Source: Holosporaceae bacterium
GTDB lineage: Bacteria > Pseudomonadota > Alphaproteobacteria > UBA3830
Direction: 5' to 3'
DNA length: 64,000 nt
NCBI GenBank assembly: GCA_031258575.1
Contig: JAIRMQ010000029.1
Location: 727-64,726 of the forward strand
In this document: piece by piece, positions 1,944 to 64,000 of the stretch
How the letters are laid out: every line of letters starts with the position of its first letter
How positions within the stretch are numbered: the first letter of the stretch is position 1
Notes under the pieces: model-generated
What the model was told of the DNA's origin: nothing
Database searches by the model: none
Seen by the model: the letters and a program-made list of their open reading frames with translations, nothing else
Translations under genes and position numbers: made by a program

Positions 1944-3817
1944 TGGTTCGCAGAGCAAGGAAGATATTTTTAAATAAACGTAGAAAAATATATTATCTGT
2001 TTTTCTACTGCGCGATCTTTGTCTTAGTTGTTGGCTTTTTCGCTTTTATATTTCTTATCCATGATATGCCAGATCTTAATAATCTGGAAACTAAAGGTCG
2101 GCGCGCTAGTATTATTTTTGAATCTTATGATGGTAAAAATATCGCCACCTACGGAGATTTATTCCGAAATACGGTGAAAGTCGATAAACTACCACGATAT
2201 GTTGGAGAGGCCGTTATAGCTATCGAAGATCGTCGATTTTTCAAGCATTGTGGAGTAGATTTCCTTGGAATTTTACGCGCCATGTGGATGAATATTTTAA
2301 GTCGTAGAATAGTGCAAGGTGGATCCACTTTAACGCAGCAGTTGGCGAAGAATTTATTCTTGTCTCAAAGCCGCTCTATAAAAAGAAAAGTACAAGAACT
2401 TATTCTAGCTTTCTGGCTGGAGAAAAAATTTTCTAAAAAACAAATACTATCGATCTATCTTAACCGTGTGTATTTCGGAGGTGGAGCCTATGGAATAGAC
2501 GCAGCAGCATACAGATTTTTTGGTAAGAAATCTGAAAAATTAACGTTGTATGAAGCTGCAAAACTGGCCGGAGTACTAAAATCTCCCGCTCTCTATTCAC
2601 CTTTTTATAATGTAGATAAATCTGATAAAAGAACCACGCTTGTCCTAACCTGCATGGTCGAAGCAGAATACATATCCGAAGCAGAAAAGAAAGAAGCAAT
2701 GCTTGAAAAAGAAAGATTGAGCAGACTTTCTATTCCGATGGATGAAAATAGATATTTCACAGATTGGGCCTTAGAACAAGTTCAAGAATTAGTTGGAATG
2801 GGAGAAGAAGATTTAGTTGTAAGAACCACTCTTGATTCACAATTGCAGAAAAACGCGACCTATGTAATTCGAAAAGTCTTGAACGAATATGGATTCAAAA
2901 ACGGAGCTGAGCAAATGGCTCTAGTCGCGCTTGATAAAACCGGCGCTGTACGCGCGATGGTTGGAGGACATACCTATAGTACAAGTCAATATAATCGTGC
3001 ACTCGCGCTCAGATCTTTCGGATCAGCTTTTAAATATTTCGTATTTGTAACGGCTCTGGAGCATGGCTTTGACATTTATGATCATGTTAGTGATATGCCG
3101 ATTACGATTGGAAGTTGGTCCCCTAAAAACTATCATTATCAAAGCGTAGGGAGTATTAGTCTACTTGACGCTTTTGTTAAGTCTGTCAATACTTGTACTG
3201 TTAGATTAGCGCAAAAAATCGGAATGGAAGCAATAATAAACAAAGCGCATGCTCTCGGAATTACAAGTGAAATTAGTCCGAATCTGGCTTCTGCCTTAGG
3301 AGCAGGAGGAGTAAATTTGCTTGAAATGACAGCAGCCTATGGTGCAACTATGATTAATGGAAACAGAATGTTCCCCTTCGGAATTATAAGCATAAAAACT
3401 CAGAAAGGCAAAATTCTGTATCGTGCTTATAAAAAATCGGATCAATCAGTTATTTCTCCAGAGAATTGCGAAAAAATGAGAATAATGATGGGATCGCTAA
3501 TGGAGCGCGGAACGGGAAAAAGAGCAAAAATTCCAATTGCCTGTTACGGAAAAACGGGGACTAGCAATGATAGCAGAGACGCAAGTTTTATTGGATTTTC
3601 CAGTCCATTAGTTGCGGGAGTATGGGTCGGAAATGACGACAATACTCCTATGAATCAGAAAATGACCGGGGGAATTTTGCCAGCAATCGTCTGGAGAGAT
3701 TTTATGATGATATCCTTTGGATATCAGAAGCCAATAGATGTCATTCAAATAAACGCTCCTAATTCAGCTAAGCTGAAGCGCCGTAGCATAAAATCTCTCA
3801 TACACGAATTATCCTAA
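1943..3817 (+). CDS. Class A penicillin-binding protein (glycosyltransferase + transpeptidase, PBP1A-like)
   Basis: N-terminal TM helix. GT51 motifs EDRRFFKHCGVD and GGSTLTQQLAKN. Transpeptidase motifs SAFK (SxxK), SVN (SxN) and KTGTS (KTG). The ATG overlaps the gyrB stop (TAATG). Confidence 0.93.
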
Positions 3818-7675: not shown

Positions 7676-9685
7676 CTAAGCGATTATATCTTCATTCAAT
7701 CGTTTAAAAATATCGCTAAGGAATTTAATATTATTCGGATTAATCTTGCGGGATATTTCTTCAGCTATTTTAATTAAATCATAGTTGTTAGAAAAATCGC
7801 TGAATCTTAGCGAATTAAATCCACTCTGTTCTTTTCCGAGAATATCGCCGGCTCCGCGTAATTTTAGATCCTCTTCACTAAGCAAAAATCCATCAGTAAC
7901 GGTTTTCATCAACTGTAATCTTTTCTTTCCGATATTTGATAGCGGACTATGATAAAGCAAAACGCAATATGCTTTTTCATTTCCGCGCCCCACGCGTCCA
8001 CGCAATTGATGCAATTGTGCAAGACCAAATCTCTCCGCATGCTCTATTACTATTACATTTGCATTTAGGATATTAACCCCTACTTCCACCACCGTTGTTG
8101 AAATTAGGATTTTAAATTCTCCTTTTTTAAATCGGCAAATGATCTCGTCTTTTTCTTGCATTTTCATTTTTCCGTGCAGAATGAAAACGTCATTTCTAGA
8201 AAAATGGCTGGTTATATATTCGTATCGTGTATTGATATCCATAAGAGTTTCTGATTCCTCTATAACTGGGCATATCCAATAGATTTGCGAATTAATCTCA
8301 CGCAATCTTGCGATTAAATCATTTATTTTCGATACGCCGATCACAGTTGTTTTGATTATTTTTCTTCCTTCTGGTTTTGTTTTTATAGTAGAAACGTCTA
8401 GATCTCGGTAAAATCCCAGCAACAATGTTCTTGGAATAGGAGTTGCGGACATCGCTAATATGTTGGGATATTGGCATTTTTTAATTAGAGATAGCCGTTG
8501 CATTACTCCGAATCGGTGTTGTTCGTCAATAATCACTAAACCGAGTTTTCCAAATTCAATATTATCCTCAAAAAGCGCATGAGTACCAATGAGTATTTGC
8601 GTTTCTCCATTCTTTAATTTTTTAATTTGCTCGGAACGACGCCTCCGATTACTACTTAGTATTATATCGATTTTAATGCCTAGGTTTTCGGACATTTTTC
8701 TGATACTTTCAAAATGCTGAGTTGCCAGTATCTCAGTTGGCACAAGAAAAGTCGCTTGAACTTTATTTTCTAAAGCGATAAGCATAGCAATAAAAGCGAC
8801 GATCGTTTTACCGGATCCAACATCCCCTTGTATGAGTCGATTCATCGGCTTTCCTGAAGAGAGGTCTTTTTTTATATCTTCTAGACACGATTTTTGATCA
8901 ACTGTAAGATCGAATGGAAGAACCAACTTTTCTAAAAGATCTCCATTTGATATTAGAGGTTTTGTCTTGCAATTGGAGATGGATTCCCGCATTTGTTTGA
9001 GACGGATTTGATTCACTAGTAATTCATCTATCGCTATTCTTTTCTTCGCTGACGCGAATAAAGATTCATCCACGAAAGACCGCGGATTATGGATAGTTTT
9101 TAGTGCCTGTGTAAAAGTCATTAAATTATTTTTAGAAATAGTTTCTGCGGTAACCCAATCTGGAATTTCAGGCATTGCTTTCAGTAAACTACTCACAGCA
9201 TATTGCACAGTACGATTCTGGAGTTTGGAAATCAGAGGATAAATCAACTCAGGCCCTATGTAGTATTGTAACATATTGGATGACGCAATAACGTCCGGAT
9301 GCGTTATTTGAATCCCTTCCATTGTTCTTTGTGCAACTCCACTTACAACAAATATCTCTCCGATCGGAAGAGATCTTCTTATAAAAGCGGAATTATAATT
9401 GAAATATCGGATGGTAATAATATCTCCATTAGTCGTTTCTCCAAAGACTTTATAGATGGACGATTTATAACGTGGAGCCGCGTGGTCTATAATTTTTAAA
9501 ATTACGGTTAATTTTTCTTTGTCTTTAAAATTATTAATGTCGCCGGATCTGTTTTGTACGGAAACCGGGAAATGAAATAGTATATCAATAACTCTACTGC
9601 CTAAACAGCATTTTTCCAATAATTTCTCAGTAAATTGAGATGCTTTCAGAAAGTTTTTAAAAGGCTGTACTAAAAAATTATTCAT
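7676..9685 (-). CDS. recG: ATP-dependent DNA helicase RecG
   Basis: N-terminal wedge/OB region, Walker A GDVGSGKT, DEQHRFGV, and helicase motif VI QLRGRVGRG. Confidence 0.95.
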   Translation of the reverse strand: MNNFLVQPFKNFLKASQFTEKLLEKCCLGSRVIDILFHFPVSVQNRSGDINNFKDKEKLTVILKIIDHAAPRYKSSIYKVFGETTNGDIITIRYFNYNSAFIRRSLPIGEIFVVSGVAQRTMEGIQITHPDVIASSNMLQYYIGPELIYPLISKLQNRTVQYAVSSLLKAMPEIPDWVTAETISKNNLMTFTQALKTIHNPRSFVDESLFASAKKRIAIDELLVNQIRLKQMRESISNCKTKPLISNGDLLEKLVLPFDLTVDQKSCLEDIKKDLSSGKPMNRLIQGDVGSGKTIVAFIAMLIALENKVQATFLVPTEILATQHFESIRKMSENLGIKIDIILSSNRRRRSEQIKKLKNGETQILIGTHALFEDNIEFGKLGLVIIDEQHRFGVMQRLSLIKKCQYPNILAMSATPIPRTLLLGFYRDLDVSTIKTKPEGRKIIKTTVIGVSKINDLIARLREINSQIYWICPVIEESETLMDINTRYEYITSHFSRNDVFILHGKMKMQEKDEIICRFKKGEFKILISTTVVEVGVNILNANVIVIEHAERFGLAQLHQLRGRVGRGNEKAYCVLLYHSPLSNIGKKRLQLMKTVTDGFLLSEEDLKLRGAGDILGKEQSGFNSLRFSDFSNNYDLIKIAEEISRKINPNNIKFLSDIFKRLNEDIIA

Positions 9686-58167: not shown

Positions 58168-58244
58168 TGGTGCGATCGGCGGGATTTGAACCTGCGACAC
58201 CAGGATTAGGAATCCTGTGCTCTATCCAACTGAGCTACGACCGC
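58168..58244 (-). tRNA. tRNA-Arg (anticodon CCT), CCA encoded
   Basis: The minus strand reads GCGGTCG-TA-GCTC-AGTTGGATA-GAGC-A-CAGGA-TTCCTAA-TCCTG-GTGTC-GCAGG-TTCAAAT-CCCGC-CGATCGC-ACCA. This is a full cloverleaf with one A-C mismatch in the T stem. Confidence 0.92.
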
Positions 58245-61030: not shown

Positions 61031-61768
61031 TTGGACAATTTTTTGAAAAAAAATGCTTTTATAAAGTTATGGGCGAAAATCCAGAGAAATTTGTTAATTT
61101 TCTTCCAAAAGAAACGAGGAAAAGAGCGTTTCGTTGCTATTATATCAAAAGTAATAGCATTTTTAATGAGGATATCTTTTTTCACGACCAAATGGAAAAT
61201 CGTGGGAGAGAATATTCCAAACTCATATCATCAGAAAAATACACCATTTATCGTCTGTTTATGGCATGACAGACTTATGACGGCTCCGTGCGTTTGGAAA
61301 TGGAAAAAGCCTCTGCATGTGCTAGCTTCCAATCATAAAGACGGAAGATTAATGGCAAAAGTTGTTGAGAATTTTTCAATGCCAGCTATCTATGGCTCCA
61401 CTGGTAGAGGAGGAGTGTCTGCCGCAAAAAAAATCATTCGTTTAATAAGATCTGGAGAATATGTCGCCATTATTCCAGACGGTCCCAGGGGACCTCGCCA
61501 TAAACTTGCACCTGGTGTAATTGCTATTTCTCAGTTAGCGAAGGTGGATATTATCCCGTTCAGCGTTTGTGTGAAAAGATATTTTCGTTTTGATTCTTGG
61601 GATAAATTTATTCTAGTTTGGCCATTTAATCTCGGAGTTATGGTTTGGGAAGAACCCATTTCATTTGGAAAATTGCAGAAAATATCAGAAGAAGAAGCGA
61701 TCGAATTGGTGGAATCAAAAATAAATAAAGCTACACAAACAGCGAAAAACCTTCTTAATAATGCTTAG
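61031..61768 (+). CDS. DUF374 lysophospholipid-acyltransferase-like protein
   Basis: CLWHDRL, ASNHKDGRLMA, IIPDGPRGPRH. It occupies the classic position immediately upstream of, and overlapping, waaA. TTG start is uncertain. Confidence 0.75.
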   Translation: MDNFLKKNAFIKLWAKIQRNLLIFFQKKRGKERFVAIISKVIAFLMRISFFTTKWKIVGENIPNSYHQKNTPFIVCLWHDRLMTAPCVWKWKKPLHVLASNHKDGRLMAKVVENFSMPAIYGSTGRGGVSAAKKIIRLIRSGEYVAIIPDGPRGPRHKLAPGVIAISQLAKVDIIPFSVCVKRYFRFDSWDKFILVWPFNLGVMVWEEPISFGKLQKISEEEAIELVESKINKATQTAKNLLNNA

Positions 61769-63032
61769 TCTTTACAGAGTAATCTTTATCATTATTTCTC
61801 CTATTCTAAAAATGTTTTTCTATATGAGGTGTCTATATAAAAAAGAAAAATTCAATTGCGTTTGCAATCGATTTGGAATTCCAACTGTTTCTAGACCAAA
61901 AGGAAAATTAATCTGGATACATGCAGCTAGCATTGGAGAGTCAACCTCCGCCTTGACTCTAATCCAGCATATAAAAAAACGATTTCCTAATTCGAACATA
62001 TTAATCACGACAATTACGGTAACTTCGGCCAATATTTTACTTCCTAAAATATCCTTAATAGATAAATGCCTGCATCAATTTTCCGTAGCGGATAACCCCA
62101 TTTGGGTTAATAAGTTTTTGGATTATTGGAAGCCAAATATCTCCTTTTTTGTAGAGTCAGAGATTTGGCCAAATACGATCGATTCGCTGTTTCAACGAAA
62201 AATTCCTGTTTTCTTACTAAACGCTAGATTATCTACGAAATCCTTTAATCGATGGCGCATTATCAAAGGTTTTTTTTCGGAAACCTTAAAAAAATTCACA
62301 GCTATTTTAGCTCAATCTAAAGTTGATGCAGAGAGATACGCCTTTTTTTTCTCCGGAAATGTAAAGATCATCGATAATTTAAAATACGCTAATGCGCAAC
62401 TTCCTTGCAATGAAGACTTATTGCAAATGTTTCAGAAAATCTGCGAAGGAAGAAAAATATTGGTAGCGGCTAGTACTCATGAAGGAGAGGAAGAAATTAT
62501 TCTGGAGGCCCACAAAAAATTAAGGAATCACATTAAGTTGGTAACTATCATTATTCCGAGGCATCTTACCCGTATAAAAAAAAATTGTGAAATATTTCGT
62601 GATTACCAATTAAATTATTCTCTGCGGTCTGCTGCCAATATTTCCTCCACTGACGTTGAAATTTTTTGCGTGGATACCTTCGGAGAAGTAGGAACTTTTT
62701 ACCGTCTTGCCGATATATGTTTCGTCGGAGGATCTCTAGTTCCAGTTGGAGGACATAATATATTCGAACCGGTAGCGTTAGGAAAGCCTGTTTTGCACGG
62801 TCCTTATATGGACAATGCGTTGGAAGTTCGTGATTTCCTAAAATCTAAAGGACTCGCGTTTGAAGTAAACGGAGCGGATAAAATTCGCGACATGTTTCTC
62901 CAATTAACTTCAGACTCTCAGGAATTAAATAGAATATCCTCTCTAGCTCTTTCCTTAACAAAAAATAATTCACTAAACCAAATAGATAAAATAGTCCAAT
63001 GGCCTCGTCTTATGGAAGAGTCCACGCAGTAG
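61761..63032 (+). CDS. waaA: 3-deoxy-D-manno-octulosonic acid (Kdo) transferase
   Basis: WIHAASIGES, IIPRHLTR, GGSLVPVGGHNIFEP. Confidence 0.92.
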   Translation: MLSLYRVIFIIISPILKMFFYMRCLYKKEKFNCVCNRFGIPTVSRPKGKLIWIHAASIGESTSALTLIQHIKKRFPNSNILITTITVTSANILLPKISLIDKCLHQFSVADNPIWVNKFLDYWKPNISFFVESEIWPNTIDSLFQRKIPVFLLNARLSTKSFNRWRIIKGFFSETLKKFTAILAQSKVDAERYAFFFSGNVKIIDNLKYANAQLPCNEDLLQMFQKICEGRKILVAASTHEGEEEIILEAHKKLRNHIKLVTIIIPRHLTRIKKNCEIFRDYQLNYSLRSAANISSTDVEIFCVDTFGEVGTFYRLADICFVGGSLVPVGGHNIFEPVALGKPVLHGPYMDNALEVRDFLKSKGLAFEVNGADKIRDMFLQLTSDSQELNRISSLALSLTKNNSLNQIDKIVQWPRLMEESTQ

Positions 63033-63077
63033 ATTATCCCGGAAAAGCATATATTAAAAAGCTTTGAAAACTAATAG

Positions 63078-63127
63078 TGGTGCCGAAAAGAGGAATCGAA
63101 CCTCCGACCTACTGATTACGAATCAGT
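63078..63127 (-). pseudogene. 3' 50-nt fragment of tRNA-Thr(CGT): anticodon arm to CCA, with no D arm or 5' acceptor strand (att-type remnant)
   Basis: The minus strand reads ACTGA-TTCGTAA-TCAGT-AGGTC-GGAGG-TTCGATT-CCTCT-TTTCGGC-ACCA. The complementary 5' acceptor strand GCCGAAA would appear as TTTCGGC on the + strand, and that string is absent from 63128-63342. Confidence 0.8.
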
Positions 63128-63342
63128 TTACATTGGCTTTCCACAAAACAAACAACCTCCACGAATCCGCTCATATTTCAGCATTTTTGAGCATGCCTCC
63201 ACTCTATCAACCAACAATCTTGCATCAAAAACAAAACATAAAATGGGGACAGAATGGGGACAACTTCTTGCTTTTTTCTGCACCATACCCTATATAATAC
63301 TCAACAGAAAAAATATCAAATTGGATGAAGGGCACAATAATC

Positions 63343-64000
63343 ATGAGCGAGAACACGAGAAAATACACAAAAATCCCCGGACTTAGATACAGAGAGCATG
63401 CTACCAGAAAACATGGCCTGCAGAAAGATAAGTATTTCATTATACGATATATGGTTGATGGAAAAAGAAAGGAAGAAGGACTGGGATGGCTTTCTGAGGG
63501 CTGGACTGAGAAAAAAGCGGCAGCACGTTTATTTGAATTAAAAGAGAATAACAGAATAGGCATCGGATGCAAAACCCTAGCAGAAAAACGCGAACAAGCT
63601 CATAAACAAAAGGAGGAAGAGAAAACTAAAACCAAAGAAGAAGAAAGCAGGACCGCAACCTTCTCCGAAATTTTCGAAAAGTACATAACGCAGGCCAAAC
63701 AGGACAAAAGTGCCTCTTCCTGCAAAGACGAGATTTCTTTCTTCAAAAATTGGCTGCAGCCAGTCATGGGCGAGCTAACCATGTCTGAAATAACGCCGGA
63801 CACTCTGAACGCTCTAAAGAAAACAATACTTGAGAATGGAAGAACGCCGCGAACCGCGACCTATATCCTGGCCGTGGTGCGTCAGGTATTTAACTACGCA
63901 AAGAATTACGACCTATATCTGGGGGACAATCCCGTAAGCAAAATTAAGAAACCCACCTGCGACAATCGCAGAATAAGATTTTTAACCAAAAAAGAAGCGG
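63343..64000 (+). CDS. int: Tyrosine recombinase/phage-type integrase, N-terminal ~219 aa (3' end outside window)
   Basis: My own translation from ATG 63343 stays open to the window end: MSENTRKYTKIPGLRYREHATRKHGLQKDKYFIIRYMVDGKRKEEGLGWLSEGWTEKKAAARL (arm-binding type N-terminus), then ...ITPDTLNALKKTILENGRTPRTATYILAVVRQVFNYAKNYDLYLGDNPVSKIKKP...RFLTKKEA (SAM-like core-binding domain). The ORF is absent from the track because it has no stop in the window. Confidence 0.88.
   Translation, partial: MSENTRKYTKIPGLRYREHATRKHGLQKDKYFIIRYMVDGKRKEEGLGWLSEGWTEKKAAARLFELKENNRIGIGCKTLAEKREQAHKQKEEEKTKTKEEESRTATFSEIFEKYITQAKQDKSASSCKDEISFFKNWLQPVMGELTMSEITPDTLNALKKTILENGRTPRTATYILAVVRQVFNYAKNYDLYLGDNPVSKIKKPTCDNRRIRFLTKKEA

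Follow-up and report, generated by a model that had tools for sequence, protein, structure and literature searches.

At its right-hand end, the window (the whole 64,000-nt stretch of DNA analyzed here) passes from a host gene, waaA, through a piece of a tRNA gene into the beginning of a tyrosine integrase gene. The locus raises the question of whether these neighbors mark the edge of an integrated mobile element and, if so, on which side the element lies and whether it is still an element or only its remains. Our answer, which we hold to be probable while leaving considerable room for doubt, is that the window's end is the int-proximal attR-type junction of an element integrated in the tRNA-Thr(CGT) gene on the chromosome of a Holosporaceae-like bacterium from a termite gut.

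Host flank

61761-63032, plus strand: waaA/kdtA (Kdo transferase), host flank; Pfam Glycos_transf_N, E 2.3e-51; called product of 402 aa

The G+C of waaA equals the window average, and other flanking genes are recognized by Pfam as encoding an FkbM methyltransferase and a DUF374 protein. The WaaA proteins closest to the window's own come from Holosporaceae MAGs, at 59-64% identity. An empty site in a close strain was not found, no other WaaA exceeding 64% identity, and the WaaA relatives among the genome contigs (nearest 63-64% identity) have no tRNA beside waaA. Please note that the source contig is 65,914 nt long, so that its assembly stops, and can offer further sequence, at most 1.9 kb past the 64-kb window. 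Ninety-six percent of the window's words are present in one termite-gut metagenome run (X1), and part of them in a second project (X2). In its general appearance, the host resembles an AT-rich Holosporaceae-type symbiont.

A tRNA-Thr(CGT) 3′ half beside waaA

63078-63128, minus strand: displaced 3′ half of tRNA-Thr(CGT), by sequence reading and Rfam; core (O/B′) part of the att junction
63078-63080: CCA
63081: discriminator
63082-63088: acceptor 3′ strand
63089-63105: T arm
63106-63110: variable loop
63111-63127: anticodon arm, with the anticodon CGT at 63118-63120
63128: position 26

waaA converges on this tRNA piece across a spacer of 45 nt (63033-63077). Direct reading of the minus strand over 63078-63128 gives A-ACTGA-TTCGTAA-TCAGT-AGGTC-GGAGG-TTCGATT-CCTCT-TTTCGGC-A-CCA, i.e., 51 nt that run from the anticodon stem to the CCA without a D arm. 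The Rfam tRNA model matches the minus strand at 63081-63137 with 36.7 bits (gathering score 29; E 3.5e-6 locally and 4.5e-4 window-wide), in an alignment with 15 of 15 D-arm positions deleted and two acceptor pairs non-standard. ARAGORN, run over the 64-kb window, called no tRNA at 63078-63128, its sole tRNA being Arg(CCT) at 58168-58244; the 25-nt T-arm/acceptor string has a single occurrence in the window, where the chance expectation is 0. Because the D arm is absent, ARAGORN makes no call, and the string is unique, we consider the piece to be the genuine 3′ half of a tRNA and no gene in itself. The D arm and the paired acceptor stem of a full cloverleaf are missing at 63078-63128, and there is no functional tRNA gene at this place. 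The earlier, sequence-only reading of this DNA had matched the segment to the 3′ part of a tRNA-Thr(CGT) lacking the D arm, and the sequence, Rfam, and ARAGORN all bear it out. The window's intact tRNA-Arg(CCT) also encodes its CCA, so the CCA-bearing tRNA-Thr fragment fits a host origin. Neither the tRNA block nor the arm repeats described below have a second copy in the 63 kb to the left of the junction.

Boundary and orientation

63129-63342, unstranded: element-derived att arm (P-arm equivalent) and int regulatory region, by alignment with the int-upstream DNA of loci L026 and L004
63242-63262, plus strand: tandem direct repeats AATGGGGACA-G-AATGGGGACA, period 11, by repeat search; presumed arm-type sites
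63268-63298, plus strand: putative int promoter, TTGCTT at 63268-63273 and TATATA/TATAAT at 63291-63298, by sequence reading
63343-64000, plus strand: 5′ part of a tyrosine integrase gene, 219 codons, transcribed into the element; by Pfam, PHROG, and AlphaFold/Foldseek

The boundary was mapped by comparison with L026, a relative that sits at another, tRNA-like target in a host encoding a TLC ATP/ADP translocase. Its int-upstream DNA aligns with window 63129-63342 up to ...GTTTGTTTTG-GGA-A-C-AT-TAA and diverges exactly at the start of the window's tRNA piece; the int-upstream DNA of L004 aligns along 63129-63342 as well. Since the L026 alignment stops at the tRNA piece, the host/element boundary is placed at 63128/63129. 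The similarity to tRNA begins at 63127/63128, in the 5′ strand of the anticodon stem, which corresponds to an attP centered on the anticodon.

The same alignment bears on an explanation that does without an att site altogether, namely that a tRNA-Thr gene damaged by a D-arm deletion, or a D-arm-less tRNA, stands beside an integrase by chance. The Rfam match runs end to end over 63081-63137 and takes GCCAATGTA as the 5′ acceptor strand, with 5 of 7 pairs standard, as such a tRNA would have it. However, GCCAATGTA aligns with element DNA of L026 (ACCATATATA) that adjoins another target sequence there, and it is therefore element arm and not tRNA; moreover, ARAGORN does not call such a tRNA, and the tRNA pieces of relatives are truncated at the same anticodon-stem point in five other tRNA species. 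We regard a chance neighborhood of this kind as scarcely credible and reject a D-arm-less tRNA at 63078-63137 on the L026 alignment; these positions should not be annotated as a tRNA gene, even though the match exceeds the Rfam gathering score.

The orientation follows from the way in which tRNA genes are split by known islands. In the Islander collection, the fragment is the 3′ part of the tRNA in 3760 of 3919 islands and the site is anticodon-centered in 2083, and a configuration filter places the displaced 3′ fragment downstream of the regenerated tDNA (PMC4383910). The 51-nt tRNA-Thr(CGT) 3′ half is a fragment of the usual, 3′ kind. It runs from right to left, with its 3′ end facing waaA, and by the Islander rule (PMC4383910), the island and the regenerated tRNA would thus lie to the right. 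The same side had been proposed from the letters alone, in agreement with both the rule and the boundary mapping. In practical terms, the contig's final 870 nt are best labeled foreign mobile DNA.

Integrase gene and its predicted fold

The ATG of the integrase lies at 63343, 215 nt from 63128, and the reading frame is without a stop up to 63999. Three core-binding families, Phage_int_M, SAM_3, and SAM_5, are placed by Pfam at aa 106-203 of the 219 residues, and the ORF is a match to PHROG 1 (integrase) with an E of 5e-22. PF00589 is not among the Pfam matches to aa 1-219, which is the part of the protein covered by the window; full-length homologues at 50-72% identity carry PF00589, and the catalytic domain, with its R-H-R-Y residues, would fall past position 64000. 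A P4-type arm-binding family, which we take to be PF13356, appears neither in the Pfam scan of the integrase fragment nor among the precomputed domains of its homologues. In the AlphaFold model (AF2, pLDDT 90.9, from 30 homologues), the N-terminal part forms a sheet of three strands (aa 14-24, 27-38, and 41-49) with a helix (aa 56-72), to which a helical bundle is connected by a long linker helix. Foldseek returns full-length lambda Int (1z1b, 1z1g, 5j0n) as the top matches, over ~200 columns at 15-16% sequence identity, and it pairs the N-terminal part with the arm-binding domains 3ju0, 3jtz, and 3rmp (HPI, HAI7, and P4-like integrases) at a probability of 0.98-0.99. The domains are accordingly laid out as:

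~aa 10-72: arm-binding domain
between the two domains: linker helix
~aa 106-203: core-binding domain

By this predicted fold, the integrase is heterobivalent (lambda-type), having an arm-binding domain besides its core-binding domain. The two domains are those named in the sequence-only reading for the ORF ~215 nt further on, an assignment that Pfam, AlphaFold, and Foldseek now place on firm ground.

Judged from its codons, the 5′ half of the integrase is intact and evolves under strong purifying selection: a comparison with L004 over 213 alignable codons gives a dN/dS of 0.08, a ratio that is rough owing to saturated dS while the constraint is clear. The G+C of 63343-64000 (658 nt) is 0.429; the rest of the window has 0.356 ± 0.027 in equal-sized windows, of which only 0.16% reach 0.43. 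The G+C jump noticed earlier from ~63340 onward is thus real and modest, over the 658 nt that are visible. As to the "integration scar" under which the locus had first been described, the att junction contained in that term is supported, whereas the word scar itself is too weak for a junction with a well-kept att arm and an intact int 5′ half.

Att arm, tandem repeats, and putative promoter

The two perfect copies of AATGGGGACA lie ~115 nt from the core, in the stretch that leads from the tRNA piece to int; the tandem pair has a single match in the window, with 0 expected. Repeats at this place are a property of the integrase family: 16 of 19 related loci have an exact tandem repeat (at least 8 nt, period 9-13, mostly 11) in the last 160 nt before int, as against 55 of 3800 shuffles (1.4%). 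The sequence of the repeat varies by integrase lineage (GGGGACA, GGGGAGAG, GTGGGATAG, GGTTGTACA, GGGGGCTA). As the position is conserved and the sequence is lineage-specific, the AATGGGGACA repeats are likely to be arm-type sites, to which the N-terminal domain of the integrase would bind.

Directly 3′ of the arm repeats, TTGCTT-N17-TATATAAT is common to the window and L004, and the block cttgcttttttctgc-cc-t-ccctatataat is kept in the L004 alignment. We take the TTGCTT...TATAAT block as a putative int promoter; a sigma-70 consensus scanner left it uncalled, its spacing and hexamers lying outside the scanner's rules.

Relatives of the integrase

At E <= 1e-5, 42 homologues were found for the integrase fragment, the closest being 72% identical; their sources are termite-type JGI samples and anaerobes (Thermodesulfobacteriota, Synergistaceae, Desulfobacter). 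Metagenome contigs searched with the integrase gave only relatives at <=57% identity (62% on a short stub), IMG/VR viral contigs gave no match to either the integrase protein or the arm-repeat DNA, and a plasmid collection gave only weak integrase matches, at 32% identity over the core-binding domain. We compared 24 integrase-related loci (L004-L027). In about 15 distant relatives, the 3′ half of a tRNA lies 150-215 nt upstream of the int start, on the opposite strand from int, and in every relative with a tRNA half, the similarity to tRNA starts at the anticodon stem-loop. Assignments include:

L007/L008 and L020-22: Thr(CGT)
L006, L010, L011: Arg(ACG)
L012: Arg(CCG)
L009: Arg(CCT)
L024, L027: Arg(TCT)
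L014: Lys(CTT)

Host-type genes lie past the tRNA 3′ end in L020, L024, and L027. Since the core in this integrase family turns its non-tRNA side toward int, the neighbor of int is always the displaced fragment and not the intact tRNA. An intact tRNA was found in none of the 24 loci, whose contigs either stopped at int or extended beyond the 10-kb flank. L012 has a repeat pair on both sides of its tRNA piece, where the window's other side is waaA; this is the arrangement expected for an attP or for the joint between tandem copies, and by analogy, it may serve as a model for the far arm of the window's element.

The relatives also give glimpses of what such elements carry. An int-alpA RNA motif (Rfam) lies just downstream of int in six of them (L007, L008, L009, L012, L013, L015), and L024 has genes for a DnaG-type zinc ribbon and a helicase. 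PHROG, applied to cargo ORFs, found a GH108 endolysin in L026 and a weak transcriptional-regulator match in L012, with nothing more in these two. On the strength of the int-alpA RNA, the helicase and DnaG ribbon, and the endolysin in these relatives, it is plausible that the window's element is a small satellite-like or prophage-like one.

Many of these integrase genes are broken, with an in-frame TAG in L004, a split int in L006, L024, L025, and L027, and a 68-aa stub in L015; with five or six relatives affected, decay appears to be common in the family. The junction described here could accordingly be real and the element dead, with int (possibly truncated) and little else left, and with the far end and its tRNA maybe lost. 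Besides the pseudogenes and stubs, L006 speaks for such an end state, since its split int is directly followed by ordinary-looking genes, and so does the resemblance of the host to an AT-rich Holosporaceae-type symbiont, the decay of mobile DNA being typical of reduced genomes. The window itself points the other way: 219 of 219 visible codons are intact, with the low dN/dS against L004 given above, the two arm repeats match each other perfectly, the promoter-like block is kept in L004, the G+C has not been ameliorated to the host value, and one X1 contig continues for ~650 nt beyond the window at the same depth. We regard a dead element as unlikely, if by no means far-fetched, and retain the junction of an integrated element as the preferred reading.

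Read depth in the metagenomes

The depth in X1 is 20.4 on the left flank and 7.8-9.4 on the integrase side. A drop from 20x to 8-9x could be read as partial excision of the element. We rejected this, because X1 contains 62904-63087 in two allelic forms, one exact (10.9x) and one at 5.6x with 9 differences and an indel, the latter carrying X2 variants; the alleles of two co-assembled strains explain the drop. The X1 contig that spans the junction (63099-63488) has a depth of 9.39x, which matches the 10.9x of the exact host-side allele in the way that a single integrated copy in a single strain would.

The equality of these depths is also relevant to the possibility of an assembly chimera, in which an intact tRNA-Thr(CGT) stands beside waaA and the assembly has jumped, through a common 49-nt block, into the attP of an element that is free or sits at another place. 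Several features of the data would fit a chimera: the X1 and X2 contigs fragment exactly at 63078-63128, where exact sub-blocks reach 47-68x, the 5′ half of an intact tRNA-Thr continues from 63125 in X1/X2 contigs, the source contig ends soon after the junction, and an attP-like form does exist in L012. Against this, a block of 49 nt is shorter than a normal read, so that ordinary assemblers resolve it, the exact host allele and the junction contig agree in depth, and the same layout recurs in independent assemblies of relatives, e.g., L020, L021, and L022, which show host gene, tRNA half, and int in three samples. We consider a chimera improbable. In X1, 36 nt of the arm (63228-63263) stand out by an additional depth of ~60x, which suggests that this block or related elements are multicopy in the X1 community and is probably why assemblies break near the junction.

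If the preferred reading of an integrated element holds, a regenerated tRNA should lie at the far end of the element. An intact tRNA-Thr(CGT), with the 5′ half GCCGAAATAGCTCAGCTGGTAGAGCAAT, stands on a 704-nt X1 contig of 9.4x depth; its 5′ acceptor strand GCCGAAA pairs perfectly with the TTTCGGC of the window's fragment, and 3 of 48 positions in its 3′ half deviate from the fragment. This could be the regenerated tRNA with an element-derived 3′ half, but since the contigs were built at k=31 and cannot be linked to the locus, we treat it as a hint and not as proof.

Comparison with known systems

The junction shares with the class "A" islands of Islander a tyrosine integrase and a tRNA 3′ fragment that extends from the anticodon arm to the 3′ end and is located downstream, in the sense of the tRNA, of the predicted site of the regenerated tDNA. 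It differs from them in that int is at the fragment end of the island; one end is visible here, and what Islander further requires (an intact tDNA, an island length, and the PF00589 catalytic domain of the integrase) would, like the cargo, lie outside the window.

With lambda Int, the integrase has in common the N-terminal arm-binding sheet and helix, the linker, and the helical core-binding domain, despite the low sequence identity. A further lambda-type feature, seen at the level of the DNA, is the presence of tandem repeats that are distinct from the core, at some distance from it, and presumed to be of arm type. The targets are different, a tRNA anticodon arm here and, for lambda, attB between gal and bio. 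On the lambda map, the 3′ end of int faces attP; in the window, unlike in lambda, the 5′ end of int and its putative promoter abut the att arm.

The choice of target has precedents. Salmonella phage P22 and the Shigella serotype-converting phages integrate in thrW, the gene of tRNA-Thr(CGU), and there, as in the window, the identity block begins at the anticodon loop and extends to the 3′ end. In the phage collection, the integrase has no protein match at a cutoff of E <= 1e-5, and the host here is an alphaproteobacterial symbiont.

P4-like and PICI satellites also have int beside the att site and direct repeats in the int promoter region. P4 itself uses the T-loop/acceptor end of leuX, not the anticodon loop. 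With the window's relatives, these satellites share further the int-alpA RNA of six loci and the DnaG-type zinc ribbon and helicase of L024. The int-alpA-pri module is a signature of Gram-negative PICIs (PMC13612085). Satellites of this type have alpA, for a regulator/excisionase, and a primase gene downstream of int, with the int-alpA RNA separating int and alpA. Within the 64-kb window, which ends inside int and thus before that region, alpA, a primase, or an int-alpA RNA is not found.

Proposed mechanism of integration

The observations may be combined in the following model, which leans on lambda-type recombination. In the circular element, attP would contain a copy of the tRNA segment from the anticodon stem to the 3′ end, with arm-type sites on its flanks and the int start ~215 nt from the tRNA copy. 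The N-terminal domain of Int would bind the tandem AATGGGGACA arm repeats, while the core-binding and catalytic domains would act at the core, with strand exchange probably in or beside the anticodon stem-loop. The 5′ half of the host tRNA would thereby be joined to the element's 3′ copy, regenerating a working tRNA at the right-hand far end, and the host's own 3′ half would be stranded on the int side as 63078-63128, still next to waaA. Because the presumed int promoter follows directly on the arm repeats, Int probably represses its own gene through them. Under this model, whether the strain has a working tRNA-Thr(CGT) would depend on the far end of the element.

Significance

The insertion type is ordinary and well understood, and our understanding of how such elements work is unchanged by it. 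A useful by-product is the att architecture common to the integrase clade, which provides a recipe for recognizing the ends of related islands: a tRNA half, ~115 nt, period-11 repeats, and int. That an integrase lineage is common to a Holosporaceae-like termite-gut bacterium and to free-living anaerobes hints at gene flow into symbiont genomes. It is a tentative proposal of ours, and a rather doubtful one at present, that the element belongs to an undescribed and widespread clade of small elements residing at tRNA anticodon arms, often with an int-alpA RNA, and that this copy may be active and polymorphic in a termite-gut symbiont of Holosporaceae type. If it were active and polymorphic, it would be a rare live vehicle of gene flow, possibly with unusual cargo, in a host-associated alphaproteobacterium with a reduced genome.

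Sequence variation on the host side of the junction

In X1, a termite-gut metagenome run, two alleles occur together at 62886-63087, on the left side of the displaced 3' half of tRNA-Thr(CGT): one is identical to the window (10.9x), and the minor one carries nine substitutions and one insertion (5.6x). The variants in X2, a second project with partial coverage, are those on the X1 minor allele. The preceding 1.9 kb in X1 has two differences, both about 50 nt or less from the end of that contig; therefore, allele divergence appears concentrated beside the att site.

The Rfam tRNA model matches the minus strand at 63081-63137 with 36.7 bits, against a gathering score of 29. This match joins the tRNA fragment to 9 nt of element DNA in an alignment that lacks a D arm, and a false tRNA gene is to be expected here from any pipeline using Rfam alone. 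In the protein database, the window's own host protein WaaA has 402 aa, called from Met22 of the ORF, and its contig is 65,914 nt long. Little of this contig therefore falls outside the window, and the assembled sequence stops at most 1.9 kb past the integrase.

Repeats and motifs in the element arm

A 36-nt block (63228-63263) that includes the arm repeats has about 60x extra depth in X1, where the extra copies form short contigs of their own carrying one mismatch; the X2 copy lies within a 139-nt contig with unrelated flanks. The block may represent the opposite arm of the element, or additional element copies.

Short repeated motifs, (C)CTCCAC or TTCCAC, in the stretch separating the core from the arm repeats
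63139-63144
63156-63162
63196-63202

GTGAAGG-like direct repeats are seen at the equivalent core-proximal position in four loci of integrase relatives (L007, L009, L020, and L027; each locus in its own coordinates). Both sets may be considered candidate extra protein-binding sites for Int, an excisionase, or a host factor. Furthermore, ACGAATCAGTTTACATT (63118-63134) and ACGAATCCGCTCATATT (63161-63177), 43 nt apart, are 76% alike, i.e., the anticodon-loop sequence is partly repeated within the element arm; the stretch at 63161-63177 may represent a secondary core-type site, or the likeness could be due to chance.

Attachment sites and cargo of relatives

In the relative L012, the repeat pair (GTGGGGAGAG twice) is duplicated together with its flanks, one copy on each side of a tRNA-Arg(CCG) half, and additional repeats match 1004-1072 to 2799-2929. 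This arrangement resembles an attP or the junction within a tandem array.

Arm-type repeat pair copies in L012
1216-1278
1471-1533

In L005, only a degenerate stretch beside int, ACTGATTAATAATAAGAGGG (about 2576-2620, minus strand), resembles the Thr anticodon arm; it merges directly with the beginning of a secreted-protein gene and may be an eroded att site. The att arm closest to that of the window belongs to L026, whose bacterium encodes a TLC ATP/ADP translocase (327-1778), a hallmark of intracellular bacteria. About 3 kb downstream of int, L026 also encodes a GH108 endolysin of the phage type that contains a PG_binding_3 domain (8835-9326).

Directly downstream of int, six relatives carry the Rfam int-alpA RNA motif (RF02996), half of them above the gathering score and half just below; in one scan, the ORFs after this RNA gave no AlpA-like family match.

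int-alpA RNA (RF02996) in relatives
L007 6996-7055
L008 2742-2801
L009 1511-1575
L012 3325-3393
L013 1408-1477
L015 10894-10962

A large proportion of the related int genes are broken by a stop or frameshift, or only a stub is left.

Interrupted int genes in relatives
L004 about 1240, in-frame TAG
L006 890-2105, split
L024 3263-4556, split
L025 7523-8745, split
L027 10001-10877, split
L015 9992-10198, stub

These interruptions suggest either sequencing errors in low-coverage contigs or frequent decay within the family.
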